A stretch of DNA of 64,000 bases, taken from assembly GCA_951406725.2 (NCBI GenBank), contig OX597818.1, positions 60,760,001-60,824,000 of the forward strand, given 5' to 3'. The notes below the pieces were generated by a model. That model did not search any database. It was not told the DNA's origin and was given only the letters and a program-made list of their open reading frames with translations. Positions 5,201-63,224 of this stretch are shown here, one piece after another (positions within the stretch are counted from its first letter, which is position 1; each line of letters opens with the position of its first letter). Position numbers and translations under genes: made by a program. The DNA is from Octopus vulgaris (lineage: Eukaryota).

Positions 5201-5742
5201 AAGTAATACTAAGTAATTAAGGGTTTAGCAACGAATTGCCTCACCAACACACCGAATTTAGAAATAGCAGTCAAAGAGATATAGCTATTCCTTCTACTAA
5301 AAGGGGGATCTCAGTAAAAACACAGCACTTGAAAGGCAAACACAGACAGGTAAGAAAGAAAGAATGAAATGACGGCAATCTATCATACAATTTTAAGTTA
5401 CCTACGGACGTACGTTTCGAAATCAAGTTTTAGGAAAGCATAAGAATTAGAAAATTCTACCTTACCCAAACTTCTTTTCTCATCGGCGCAGGATACTACA
5501 ATTATGAATAATTGTATATTAAATTTTGAGATACTAGAAGGCATTATCTCAACTCAGTGTCAGAGCGAGCCAAAGCATGACCAGTACCACGAAATTCAAA
5601 GTGTGAATGAAAGTTTGTGTCACCAGCCCCCTTCCACCCGCGTGTAGCCAAGACAAAATGCTGTGGTCGTTTACTGGGATAAAATATGGTTATCAGTAAC
5701 AATAAAGGGTGAAATTAATTAATTTGGAATAATTATCAATTA
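5201..5742 (-). mobile_element. PLE-type tail element abutting (TA)n and carrying an HHR-like motif
   Basis: Starts right after (TA)n at 5160-5200 and contains the HHR motif at 5408-5489. Confidence 0.55.
5408..5489 (-). ncRNA. Type I hammerhead-like motif with long stem II and variant core CCGAUGA
   Basis: Minus strand: GCG CCGAUGA GAAA-AGAAGUUUGGGUAAGGUAGAAUU-UUCU-AAUUCUUAUGCUUUCCUAAAACUUGA-UUUC GAAA CGUA|CGU. Confidence 0.6.
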
Positions 5743-5899
5743 TCCCCGTTACTTAGCGGTTCGGCAAAAGAGACCGATAGAATAAGTACTGGGCTTACAA
5801 AGAATAAGTCCCGGTGTCGATTTGCTCGACTAAAGGCGGTGCTCCAGCATGACCGCAGTCAAAATGACTGAAACAAGTAAAAGAGTAAAAGAGTAAGAG
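5743..5899 (+). mobile_element. SINE family A, 3' half
   Basis: cttagcggttcggcaaaagagaccgatagaataagtact...gtcaaaatgactgaaacaagtaaaagagtaaaagag tail shared with many copies. Confidence 0.9.
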
Positions 5900-5909
5900 T
5901 ATATATATA

Positions 5910-6090
5910 TATATATATAATATAAAATCCGTTCTGTCTGTCTGTGTGTGTGTCTTCTAGGATCTCGGGCGTCCTTCATCCGATTCCGCTCAAATTTGAT
6001 ATGTAGATACTGACGGTATCAGGGCGTGTATAAGTCTTGAAAAAATTACAAAAATCGATTCCAGGTGAGAATGCCATCGATAAAGTCGTG
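5910..6090 (+). mobile_element. Helitron-like 5' end fragment
   Basis: TATAATATAAAA...TGTCTGTCTGTGTGTG...aaatttgatatgtagat, a typical 5' organisation of animal non-autonomous Helitrons; no 3' CTAG identified. Confidence 0.4.
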
Positions 6091-6528
6091 GGACCGTGCA
6101 TTTGTATGCGCAAGTACTTCAGCTGTTGCGATGTACTTACTGGTACTTTAAACTCTTCGGTTGCATATTTGTGTGAATAAAATCGTTTTCCTTTGGAATA
6201 GAAAAAAAAGTCTCTCTTTATTTCTTCCTTTGCTGGTGTCTCAAATTTAGGTTAAATCAGTGTTTCTCAAAGGGGGGGGCCTATGGGACGGTCGGACAAG
6301 TTGTTTTGAGAACATTTGGTCTAAATGTTTGACAACTCAGCACCGTCCATTGGACGTGGGAGGCGTTTTGCTCACCTATATATATATATGTGTGTGTATA
6401 TATATATATATGTATATATATATATATATGTATGTATATATATATGTATATATATATGTATATGTATATATATGTATATGTATATATATGTATATGTATA
6501 TATATATATGTATATATATATATGTATA

Positions 6529-7536
6529 TAACGGGAAGCTTTATGAAAATAGACAAAAGACGAAGGCAGGTGGAAAACAAACAAACAATTGTATTAGTAT
6601 GGCGCTCAGGAAATATAAATAAAACAAGTCTTTAACGTTTCGAGCCTACGCTCTTCAACAGAAAGATACACAGAGAGAAAAAAACACAGAAAGAAGAAGA
6701 GAAAAAAATGCGTGCAGTAACTAACGAATCAACATGGCGATCTGATTTCGGCCAGAGGTCAAAGATCAAATATGAGACGCGAGAGCGAAATAAGGGGAGA
6801 TAATAGGGTTGATAATAGGGTTGAATGACCCTAGGATAGGTCTGGACAGGCGTATGTATGGGGTTGGTGTATGTATTAGTATGTATTAGTATGTATTAGT
6901 ACTATTAGTATGTATAAGTGTGTGTGTGTGTGTATGAGAGAGTATAAGTGCGTATGAGGGGTCTGGACGTGTGTATGTATAGGGTTGGTGTATGTATTAG
7001 TATGTATTAGTACGTATTAGTATGTATTAGTTGGTGTATGTATTAGTATGGCACATCATATATGATGTGATGTGTAAAGTCGTGTGGTGTAGTGAGGAGA
7101 AGAGGGGGAGGGGGAGAAGAGGGGGAGAAGAGGGGGAGACGGGGGGAAGAGGAGAGGGGGAAGAGGAGAGGAGGAAGAGGAGAGGAGGGGGAGATAGAGG
7201 GGGGAGAATGAAGGGGAGGAAGAGGGGGAGGAAGGAGGAAAGAGAGGGAGGGGAGAGAGAAGGGGAGAGGGGGGAAGAGGGAAGAAGGAGGGAGGGGGAG
7301 GAAGGAGGAAAGAGGGGGAGGGGGAGAGAGAAGGGGAGTGAGGGGGAGTGAGGGAAGGAGGGAGGGAGAAAGAGGGAAGAAGGGAAGGGGAGTAGGGGTG
7401 AAAGGATGAAGGACTGAAGAAGTAGGGGTCGGGGGGATAGGTGAGGAGGGGGGAGAGGGGGTTAGATGAGGAGGGGGGAGAGTTGAGACCAAATGGCGTA
7501 TAAGAGCGAAGAGAGAAGATTAATTCCTGTTCACGG
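6529..7536 (-). mobile_element. 5'-truncated Penelope-like element 3' end (copy B) with HHR-bearing terminus, in TA-rich microsatellite
   Basis: Direct repeat of 7623-8656; encodes the last GIY-YIG residues (REQELIFSLRSYTPFGLN), then a polypyrimidine tract and the HHR at 6629-6666. Confidence 0.85.
6629..6666 (-). ncRNA. Minimal type I hammerhead motif, A6U core variant
   Basis: UCUUU CUGUUGA A GAGC GUAG GCUC GAAA CGUU|AAAGA; stem I UCUUU/AAAGA, stem II GAGC/GCUC, palindromic ACGU in place of stem III. Confidence 0.75.
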
Positions 7537-7622
7537 AATATATGTATATATGTATATATATATATATATGTATATATATGTATATATATATATATATGTA
7601 TATATATATGTATATATATATG

Positions 7623-61593: not shown

Positions 61594-61795
61594 GTGGTCA
61601 GGTTGTGAGTGACTGGACTGGCCTCCCCATTTGAGTAGCTTTCTACTCTTCTGAAGAGAGTGTCTGGACATTCTGATGGACTAAGAGCAAGACCTGTCCA
61701 AGGGTTGAACAGCTCCCTTGTGGGGCCATCCGTTTGGGGAAGGCAGTGGCAATCCACCCTAATATTTTTGCCAAGAAAACCAAAGATACGGGAGC
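61594..61795 (+). mobile_element. RTE/BovB-related fragment
   Basis: ggaaggcagtggcaatccaccctaatatttttgccaagaaaacc resembles the RTE/BovB terminal motif. Confidence 0.5.
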
Positions 61796-61940
61796 TCACG
61801 CTTAATGGGAAAGATTTTCTTGTAGTGTCATTAACGCACTGTAATAGCGTACGATACCTGACGACGATGAAATGAATAAATATAAAGCAAAAGCGACAGA
61901 AACGGTGCACCGAAATCAATGATTTTCATAGGGAGTGGAA

Positions 61941-61978
61941 TATCCAACGTTTCGGAGAGAGAGTCTTTCATCCGGGTA
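61941..61978 (-). ncRNA. Degenerate minimal hammerhead motif
   Basis: UACC CGGAUGA AAGACUCUCUCUCC GAAA CGUU|GGAUA. Confidence 0.45.
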
Positions 61979-62087
61979 AAGGTGACAAGAAGGAAATTAA
62001 AATGAAGACTATGGAGTTTGAGATTGTCTTTAAAATTCAAATAATAATAGAAGTAAACATACAAAATGAGAGAGAAATAATCATAAG

Positions 62088-62458
62088 AGCAGGCGTGGCT
62101 GTGTGGTAAGAAGTTTGCTTCCCAACCACATGGAACTGAGTTCAGTCCTACTGCATGGCTCTTTGGTCAAGTGCCTTCAATAATAACTTTGCACCGAACA
62201 AAGCCTCCGAGGACGAAAACTAATAGAAGCCCGTCGTATATATATAATGTGTGTGCGTGTATTTGTCCCACCAGTATCGCTTGACAATCTGTTTCGGTGT
62301 GTTTACGTCCCTGTAACCTAGCGGTTCAGTAAAAAGACCAATAAAATAAGTACCAGGTTTGAAAACAATCAGTAGTAGGGTCGATTCATTCGACTAAAAC
62401 TTTTTCAAGTAGGTGCCTCAGCATGGCCGCAGTCTAATGACAAAAACAAATATAAAGA
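62088..62458 (+). mobile_element. SINE family A
   Basis: gcaggcgtggctgtgtggtaag...gagttcagtcc...cagcatggccgcagtctaatgac. Confidence 0.85.
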
Positions 62459-62789
62459 TACAAGGCATCTCAACATGGTTCTAATTTGTGCTTGATTTAA
62501 ATAGCGATTGCTATTAAACGCACTTTGTTGGGTGGAAAATGAGCGGCATTTCATCTCAGAATAAGGTAGCCAACTACTGTGCCATTTATATGAATAGACA
62601 CCTTCATTTTTCTTAGTGTGAGAAAGCTAACGAGATAAACAAACATATAGATAGATAAGTATATAAGACAGATAAATAAATACACACACTTATGTATATA
62701 TACTTACATATGTACATATCTGTGTGTGTGTGTACATATATATGTATGTATTATGCGTGTATGTGTACATGCCATATCACACCACATCG

Positions 62790-63224
62790 TGCACATTAGC
62801 ATTGACCACTTCCCAGCACACACGCCAGCGCACACTCTATTACTGACCACTTCCCAGCACCTACACCATCATCCACACACCTACACATGCCCACACGCAC
62901 ACGTCAATGTCACCAGCCACCTTCCACGCACACATACTCGCATGCGCACCTTCATTTTGGGATCACCACTACTTTATTATCTCCCCTTCTTCCCAGCCCT
63001 CCTGTGTGGCACCTCTGTCCGGTATTCGCCATGATAGATCGCTAGTCACTAAACCTTTTTCTATTTTCTCTCCCTGTTTATTTCTGTGTTCCTTTCTGTC
63101 GAAGAGCGTAGACTCGAAACGTAAAAGACTTTCTCACTTCCCAAGCGTTAAACTAATACATCTGTCTGTTGTTTACACACCCTTCTTCGTCTTTTGTTGT
63201 TTGTTTATTTTGTAAATTCTCACC
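62790..63224 (+). mobile_element. PLE 3' UTR and tail with HHR at 63092-63127 (CUGUCGA), ending in (TA)n
   Basis: ctgtccggtattcgccatgataga shared with 14275-14298; CUUU CUGUCGA A GAGC GUAG ACUC GAAA CGUA|AAAG. Confidence 0.8.

Follow-up and report, generated by a model that had tools for sequence, protein, structure and literature searches.

A 64,000-nt stretch of the Octopus vulgaris genome (OX597818.1:60,760,001-60,824,000; host assembly of 2.8 Gb in 227 contigs), which at its full length we call the window, carries numerous motifs resembling the hammerhead ribozyme (HHR), most of them close to (TA)n microsatellites. These TA-flanked ribozyme islands are almost certainly the ends of Penelope-like elements (PLEs). 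The fuller account that we favor, and consider probable, is that they are 3' ends of PLEs, chiefly of one intact Neptune-type element and its relatives, and that most of the short copies are complementary DNAs (cDNAs) that ran off the end of uncut RNA. Ribozyme-bearing PLEs that insert at TA are already known; what is new is a uridine at core position 6 (U6) in the largest family, family A, and a fixed 5' start of the short copies.

An initial annotation of the window had counted about 15-18 HHR motifs, and a relaxed listing combined with inspection confirmed a hammerhead-like motif at all 17 of its coordinates. Core and stems are fully canonical at two sites (22916 and 37129). Five others (6629, 7723, 14184, 59217, and 63092) have U6 in an otherwise intact motif, a sixth U6 site (53771) also has a shortened stem I, site 5408 combines a C at position 4 (C4) with a 62-nt stem II, and eight sites are decayed copies. 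A (TA)4 run lies within 67-285 nt downstream of the core start at 13 of the 17 sites; at 21216, 21531, 37129, and 61941 there was none within 400 nt. The sites had mostly been placed in 100-250 bp units ending at (TA)n: the TA linkage stands, but only nine of the 13 linked units are of that size, the longer ones being at 5408 (540 bp), 6629 (~1.0 kb), 7723 (1.1 kb), and 63092 (at least 420 bp). Repeat families were defined by masked self-BLAST, since microsatellites otherwise dominated, and by genome searches. The 17 sites fall into eight families: A (eight sites), B (three), and D, E, F, G, H, and I (one each). Because A is related to B (72.7% over 88 nt, E 2.7e-8), these amount to seven unrelated groups, in agreement with the earlier claim of at least six, and A and B together hold 11 of the 17 sites. 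Two families are tied to remnants of a GIY-YIG endonuclease (EN), as had been noted: A at 8600-8744 on the minus strand and G at ~36695-36830 on the plus strand (blastx E 9e-6). The very high copy number and the many families that had been proposed agree with exact-pattern counts in the genome of 15,730 plus 602 for A, 11,695 for B, and 1,630 for E, with reversed controls at 0.

Motif density was compared with shuffled sequence, a check that the initial annotation had put forward. A strict type I descriptor (core with at most one mismatch, stems I and II of at least 3 bp, stem III palindromic or a hairpin) found nine motifs in the window, whereas 30 block-wise dinucleotide shuffles averaged 0.1 and never exceeded 1; with two mismatches allowed the numbers were 9 and 0.5. 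In a genome sample of 86 evenly spaced 10-kb stretches (860 kb in total) the strict descriptor found 25 motifs, or 2.9 per 100 kb, seven of which came from a single tandem array, and the first 400 kb of this sample gave 16 motifs versus 0-2 in six shuffles. If the sample is representative, the genome holds ~80,000 strict motifs. With 14 per 100 kb the window is ~4-5 times denser than the genome average, and neighboring DNA has 3.6 (five in 140 kb), so the window is a local hotspot. It has 35% GC and ~158 TA tracts of at least 12 bp per 100 kb, against 123 in the genome sample. Rfam returned no match on the window at the gathering threshold and, for 21000-23400, no hammerhead family at E up to 5, only microsatellite noise.

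The coding parent of family A was traced from the minus strand of the window, where 8744-8600 encodes a GIY-YIG C-terminus. Thirty loci retrieved with this coding piece are 99% identical there; 29 of them share one end point beside TA, and the 5' ends lie at staggered positions. One locus (L067) holds an intact open reading frame (ORF) of 1,072 amino acids, from M24 to the stop, with the motifs DKG and YIDD, a CX4CXXC linker, and, at its C-terminus, a domain of the GIY-YIG type. Pfam recognized RVT_1 (E 6.6e-7) and GIY-YIG (E 0.0088, below the Pfam cut-off though the motif is visible), and 712 relatives at E up to 1e-30 were present among 7,988 scored candidates. A partial-tandem pseudo-long terminal repeat (pseudo-LTR) with a hammerhead motif was seen in three of eight long loci fetched, the unit being ~4.5 kb. 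The tandem junction reads TATATAT directly after the fixed 3' end, and the ribozyme lies ~750 nt upstream of the ORF start. From its sequence, family A appears to be an intact, young Neptune-type PLE: read by eye against the definitions in PMC8557442, it has the Neptune-clade CX2-5CxxC linker before the EN, the CCHH motif, the C-terminal EN, and DKG. Two other PLE clades were considered and ruled out on the same definitions: Hydra by DKG instead of DKT, a CCHH-type EN, a CX4CXXC instead of a CxCX5C linker, and a 4.5-kb unit instead of one below 3 kb; Naiad by DKG, the CCHH-type EN, and its C-terminal position. Non-autonomous PLE derivatives had been proposed for the window. Their PLE origin holds, but the largest family is the 3' end of an intact coding element and not a separate retrozyme, and non-coding tandem units were found for two families only, H and the previously unlisted C.

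The C-termini of P0002 and P0003 have no stop directly after the endonuclease; the ORF continues for ~150 codons into a variable proline/serine-rich repeat. Loci L244 and L260 represent another old PLE family with ~28% identity to P0003; its 3' end adjoins TA or TATC repeats, and the strict descriptor found no match in it.

Core positions were surveyed in 99 BLAST-collected copies of family A, forming 27 clusters at 92%. Position 7 takes U, C, G, or A and position 17 takes A, U, or C but never G, while constancy is 92-100% at C3, U4, G5, G8, A9, G12-A15, and U16. Of 25 clusters, 23 have U at position 6. Genome-wide, 15,730 exact copies have U6 and 602 of 16,332 have another base there; the first 100 of these 602 comprise ~71 C, 19 A, and 10 G, a mix expected from decay of U. 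The variable positions 7 and 17 within a constant core indicate that the family A fold is constrained in the manner of a hammerhead, U6 being its master state. The other features of minimal type I hammerheads are present (GAAA, stems I and II, an extra base after A9, a palindromic stem III, free positions 7 and 17), but U6 departs from the minimal core CUGANGA, which is matched by part of family B and by E, F, and G. C4 cores occur in ~76 of the first 100 B matches, in the young family H, and in many D copies; the U4 of other B copies could in part reflect CpG decay. In PMC3088659, natural A6C and U4C hammerhead variants show low activity, and the excerpt available does not mention A6U. Since the prevailing cores depart from the canonical one (U6 in A; C4 in B, H, and many D), the ribozymes may be weak, and that of family A is, judged from its core, altered and likely weakened. 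No description of a U6 core was found in the literature searched, which did not extend to supplements or to one dimer-cleavage study that could contain the variant; the matches listed for a hammerhead 'A6U' concerned other RNAs. The pseudo-LTR of family A, for example at 53730-53785 in the window, has a long pyrimidine tract running up to the ribozyme core, and in the A7 subfamily the core reads as a splice-acceptor-like YAG, so an overlap with splicing could conceivably explain U6. No joint skipping an intron in the 5' untranslated region (UTR) or pseudo-LTR was found in four contig sets, none of which is on record as RNA.

The 5' ends of short copies were determined in unbiased A1 and B loci and by genome-wide counts of junctions with TA, and the claim made here rests on these two sources; the genome-wide counts were run because a sample picked by pattern has no way of revealing copies whose 5' end is the ribozyme cut. 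On contig 1, nine of the first 30 exact A1 motifs belong to copies starting 102-114 nt upstream of the predicted cut; six copies are shorter, none starts at 115-304, and 15 are longer. For the first 30 family B motifs, 14 copies start at 99-111, 14 are shorter, and two are longer. Genome-wide, 427 TA-to-element junctions lie at -108, 34 at the cut, and 29 and 6 at two control positions (-33 and -134). There is thus a sharp class of short copies of ~211 nt that starts ~108 nt upstream of the predicted cut. A start of short copies at the cut itself was rejected, as the 34 junctions there compare with 29 at the -33 control. Initiator-like words stand at the start points (TCAGAT in A1, TCATTC in some B). 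Short A copies of 99-100% identity occur alongside long ones, and at one locus (L025) a coding element has a short segment as its upstream pseudo-LTR. No short-unit tandem junction was present among the 30 A1 loci, and the B copies are solo. These data suggest that the ribozyme does not set the length of the short copies. A sharp 211-nt solo class or a fixed 5' end of this kind was not found described in the literature searched.

Published work on two other PLEs frames the mechanism that we propose. Penelope has its start site and an initiator within the pseudo-LTR (PMC2377424). For an element of the green anole, PMC11167929 describes AT-rich nicking, internal initiation of reverse transcription (RT) at the pseudo-LTR/ORF junction, and products whose length follows the RNA 5' end; its ribozyme mutants still insert, so that the ribozyme is not needed for insertion in vitro. 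Together with the fixed start at -108, the Penelope start site and the internal RT start of the anole element lead us to infer run-off, and a cDNA running off uncleaved RNA is, taken by itself, a somewhat likely source of the short copies. Transcription would start within the upstream pseudo-LTR, at a site resembling an initiator ~110 nt ahead of the cut. The GIY-YIG nuclease would nick (TA)n (a linker finger has been proposed to mediate TA bias; PMC8557442), and RT would start internally at the pseudo-LTR/body junction, where the TATATAT of A1 could pair with the target. An RT start at the first junction would let the cDNA run off the RNA 5' end and leave a 211-nt solo unit; a start at the downstream junction would give long or truncated copies. 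The hammerhead fold would be kept by selection yet weakened (U6 or C4, a 2-bp palindromic stem III), and would cut slowly, only as a dimer or with the help of protein, after insertion or apart from it. H and C would be gene-less tandem units borrowing PLE enzymes, and E a tRNA-headed element with PLE-type insertion marks. A bolder version holds that the top PLE lineages fixed deliberately weakened cores (U6, C4), that short copies are in vivo strong-stop cDNAs mapping the transcription start of each family, and that E is a tRNA-promoter short interspersed nuclear element (SINE) mobilized by PLE enzymes and not by a long interspersed nuclear element (LINE); we offer it tentatively and think it rather less probable than its negation.

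Several points weigh against the run-off account and the wider reading to which it belongs. The transcription start near -108 is deduced from sequence features. The four junction patterns differ somewhat in the subfamilies that they cover, and exact junction positions are biased by AT microhomology with the tract. RNAfold predicts for A1 an imperfect hairpin from -154 to -87 (-16.9 kcal/mol for the 100-nt window folded), whose strongest helix ends at the start point, and for family B a 6-bp hairpin at the 5'-start peak. Coding parents of B, D, E, F, H, C, and I did not come to light, the search having been aimed at B and D and not at a partner of E. U6 could be an inherited inactivating change and not a selected one. 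Family A is Neptune-like by the motif definitions of PMC8557442, and its placement in Neptune rather than Nematis is tentative. Finally, stem covariation within families, a further check named in the initial annotation, was sought in F and G and did not exceed shuffles. The stems of F and G are 85-87% paired, versus 20-58% when slid, and those of family A are nearly invariant; as the stems hardly vary, the lack of covariation in F and G says little.

The predicted hairpins at the A1 and B peaks also feed the main rival explanation, in which RT on long transcripts is arrested by an RNA hairpin situated ~108 nt upstream of the cut and so creates the 211-nt class. In favor of it, half of the A1 copies reach far past the site. 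The hairpins are weak, however, and differ between A and B, yet both peaks fall 100-112 nt from the cut; B copies end in the loop and the 3' arm and not at the hairpin base, only two of 30 extend beyond, and junctions just upstream of the peak number 6 against 29 downstream. We regard stalling as unlikely. Less likely still is that the 100-250 bp units are independent non-autonomous masters, retrozyme- or SINE-like, with an internal promoter of their own and the ability to copy themselves, as the initial annotation implied. A fixed 5' end with TA on both sides does resemble a discrete element, long copies are nearly lacking in family B, for which no coding parent came to light, and true non-coding units exist in H and C; but short A copies are 99-100% identical alongside long ones, the short segment of L025 is the pseudo-LTR of a coding element, and no arrays of short units joined head to tail were seen. 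That the ribozymes cut and circularize RNA and that such circles are the main templates of all families, as proposed in PMC4209133 and in keeping with the circles reported for animal retrozymes (PMC7229834) and with the tandems of H and C, which fit rolling templates, is very improbable, because a circle has no 5' end and cannot give the -108 peak, junctions at the cut are no commoner than at the control site, and the prevailing cores are altered at positions whose mutation reduces activity (A6C, U4C; PMC3088659); it may still hold for H, C, and F. Run-off from uncut RNA thus stays the reading that we prefer for the short copies of A and B.

TA targeting was examined in sampled copies and in loci drawn without bias. 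A (TA)4 run stands at the 3' end of 35 of the 47 copies sampled from families A, B, C, D, and H, compared with a background of 7.5%, whereas E has it in 0 of 11; in unbiased loci the proportion was 29/30 for A1 and 25/30 for B. TA targeting, as claimed earlier, therefore applies to A, B, C, D, and H, but not to E, F, G, and I, which are not TA-associated in the window. The further suggestion that the elements help to build TA microsatellites found no support. Only 35 of 506 TA blocks in the sample, and 14 of 52 in the window, touch a 3' end of a PLE family, and one copy (L024) occupies a (TA)3 site where a short piece of the target is duplicated but no tract has been added. PLE families as the source of most TA tracts were accordingly rejected, and insertion into existing tracts explains the data. 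The largest clusters of TA flanks (48, 45, and 15) belong to another, abundant SINE-like repeat with an internal TA/CA microsatellite, which supplies more TA-tract flanks than the PLE families; its copies in the window lie at 5743-5896, 13252-13704, 22389-22854, 32520-32920, 36109-36547, 37535-37930, 38820-39650, 44266-44888, and 62080-62464.

Family A is represented in the window by two 5'-truncated A1 copies of the apparent Neptune-type PLE on the minus strand, at 6531-7536 (ribozyme motif 6661-6634, CUGUUGA) and at 7625-8744 (the GIY-YIG C-terminus, 3' UTR, and a motif at 7755-7728; 95.5% to the natural unit of L061 over 1,157 bp). An older subfamily is found as a ~211-nt unit at 14090-14300 (minus; CUGUAGA core at 14215) and, with a longer 3' UTR, at 62800-63224 (plus; CUGUCGA core at 63096). 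The other copies are a 213-nt unit with TA on both sides at 53693-53905 (plus; CUGUUGA core at 53776), a unit at 59148-59352 (plus; CUGUCGA core at 59221), and decayed units at 54830-55010 (plus; core 54894) and 56816-57005 (minus; core 56937). Beside one family A copy, 14300-14600 forms a long near-perfect inverted repeat that starts like the inverted tail of family D and is possibly an inversion of another PLE family. Family B, on the plus strand, comprises a 208-nt unit at 18900-19107 (CCGACGA core at 18979, stem III decayed), a 170-nt unit at 22882-23051 with a fully canonical minimal hammerhead at 22920-22946, and a decayed unit at 59629-59765 (core 59639). One B copy has an RT remnant upstream, but a TA tract lies between the two and no coding parent was gained; long loci of family D, which end at TA, gave none either. 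Family D has two 3' ends 70 nt apart and inversions, and its copy at 23104-23204 (plus) joins an inverted 70-nt tail end to an 84-nt 3' end, with a type I hammerhead of 3-bp stem III (core 23138).

Families H and C are genuine non-autonomous elements, in line with the idea of retrozymes derived from PLEs (bioRxiv 10.64898/2026.07.22.740005; PMC7229834). Copies of the 588-bp non-coding unit of H are 98-100% identical and occur in tandems spaced 588 bp, with inverted junctions and the last 3' end at TA. H has no long ORF and no blastx match to 123 proteins; its head-to-tail non-coding units, each with a type I hammerhead (a C4 variant), are a feature of retrozymes of the kind without LTRs. In the window, 540 bp of this unit lie at 5203-5742 (minus), with the motif core CCGAUGA starting at 5486, the long stem II, a palindromic stem III, and the 3' end at the TA tract 5164-5201. 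Family C consists of 857-bp tandem units with a 130-bp terminal repeat, its copies being mostly 93-99% identical; unit and repeat together occupy 8843-9829 (minus) between TA tracts. Hammerhead-like motifs at 8940 and 9797 read CUGAAGA but have GAAU and a weak stem II, and their register is uncertain.

Of 25 loci of family E, 16 have the tRNA-like head, 15 an inverted upstream copy, and two a tandem; 3' ends form two clusters ~45 nt apart (12 and 12 of 25), and TA is absent. In the window, E at 21430-22365 (minus) has its head at 22365-22291, an (AAT)n/(AAC)n tract, and a hammerhead body (core 21570) in which G12 has decayed; a second copy at 25135-25400 (minus) has a deletion inside the ribozyme motif. 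The A and B boxes of the head were judged by eye against the consensus, and ARAGORN calls no tRNA in the window. The inverted copies and the two 3' ends point to a PLE partner, which makes E a candidate for a PLE-mobilized SINE; no PLE-mobilized tRNA SINE was found in the literature searched.

Families F, G, and I are old (70-86% identity). F is a dispersed element at 21150-21440 (plus) with a canonical-type type I hammerhead (core 21221), a decayed cleavage site, and no TA tract. The old PLE of family G at 36690-37190 (plus), interrupted by a SINE-like repeat, has its broken GIY-YIG remnant upstream of a canonical-core minimal hammerhead at 37134-37163. I is a low-copy family with a decayed minimal hammerhead at 61900-62010 (minus; core 61974) and no TA tract. 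A further decayed minimal hammerhead-like motif at 15860-15990 (plus; core 15875) has no relative in the 860-kb sample. Outside the window, locus L298 (contig 1:19999000-20008500) contains at ~3130-5770 a 359-bp tandem retrozyme with a fully canonical hammerhead in five units plus two inverted ones; TA tracts at both ends put PLE-type insertion marks on a classical retrozyme. Three other repeats were seen in the window. A LINE 3' fragment at 51474-52510 (plus), between (AAT)n and TA tracts, has a restriction-like endonuclease motif visible by eye and a weak zf-RVT match, the only Pfam result for 21 window ORFs. A 184-bp repeat is tandem and dispersed at 11077-11679 and ~10 other places. A 400-bp repeat at 3128-3521 and 63297-63694 (93% identical, the second copy between TA tracts) carries a 99-bp duplication inside it, contains a short hairpin, and ends in CTAG, and we take it to resemble a non-autonomous Helitron-type element.

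Among known systems, family A comes closest to the EN-containing PLEs of the Neptune clade (Arkhipova 2006, via PMC8557442), with which it shares a single RT plus C-terminal GIY-YIG ORF, the CX2-5CxxC linker, DKG, a partial-tandem pseudo-LTR with a hammerhead, and a microsatellite bias. It differs in a U6 core fixed across subfamilies and in a stop codon within a variable low-complexity tail. Cervera and de la Pena (2014, PMC4209133), on metazoan PLEs, place hammerheads in pseudo-LTRs, link thousands of solo copies to truncated PLEs, and report weak cleavage as dimers. The minimal hammerheads described there share with ours the type I architecture, the extra base between 9 and 10.1, G10.1-C11.1, a palindromic 15.2-16.2, mostly solo copies, and many families per genome; they number ~2,000-9,000 per genome with a U3-A8 variant, compared with at least 29,000 exact matches in three families here and a dominance of U6 and C4. 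The Poseidon PAc element of the green anole (Frangieh et al. 2024, PMC11167929) is alike in AT-rich nicking, an internal RT start at the pseudo-LTR/ORF junction, a ribozyme dispensable for insertion, and two 3' ends (a tail), as in D and E. It belongs to another clade, its start site is not homologous to the target, unlike the TATATAT junction of A1, and its ribozyme spans the ORF start and does not lie well upstream of it.

Non-LTR retrozymes (PMC7229834; bioRxiv 10.64898/2026.07.22.740005) resemble H and C in their non-coding tandem units and proposed PLE dependence, and H in its type I motif; H and C differ in ending at (TA)n with PLE-type junctions, and H in its C4 and 62-nt stem II, while the short A and B units are not tandem at all. 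Schistosoma SINE-like hammerhead retroposons (PMC6765202) join a polymerase III-type head to a hammerhead, as family E does, but E is rarely tandem and has the inverted upstream copies and paired 3' ends given above. Hydra-1_Obim and Naiad_Obim/Ovul, octopus PLEs in the supplement of PMC8557442, share the (TA)n preference of families described here, some of which, other than A, could be Hydra ends. An octopus repeat annotation lists 31 recently active PLE families, and the word ribozyme is absent from the excerpt of that paper (PMC13282606).

The role of the hammerhead in PLEs is still open (PMC8557442, PMC11167929). The U6 core and the fixed 5' start of the short copies bear on this question, catalysis being predicted here from sequence. 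The O. vulgaris genome offers an element that is intact and very young, copies numbering in the tens of thousands, and related families with natural variants of the core (U6, C4, and canonical), so that two things can be asked in it: whether a U6 core cleaves, and whether solo copies derive from uncleaved RNA running off at the start site. If the latter is true, it would explain the abundance of single minimal hammerheads in animal genomes.

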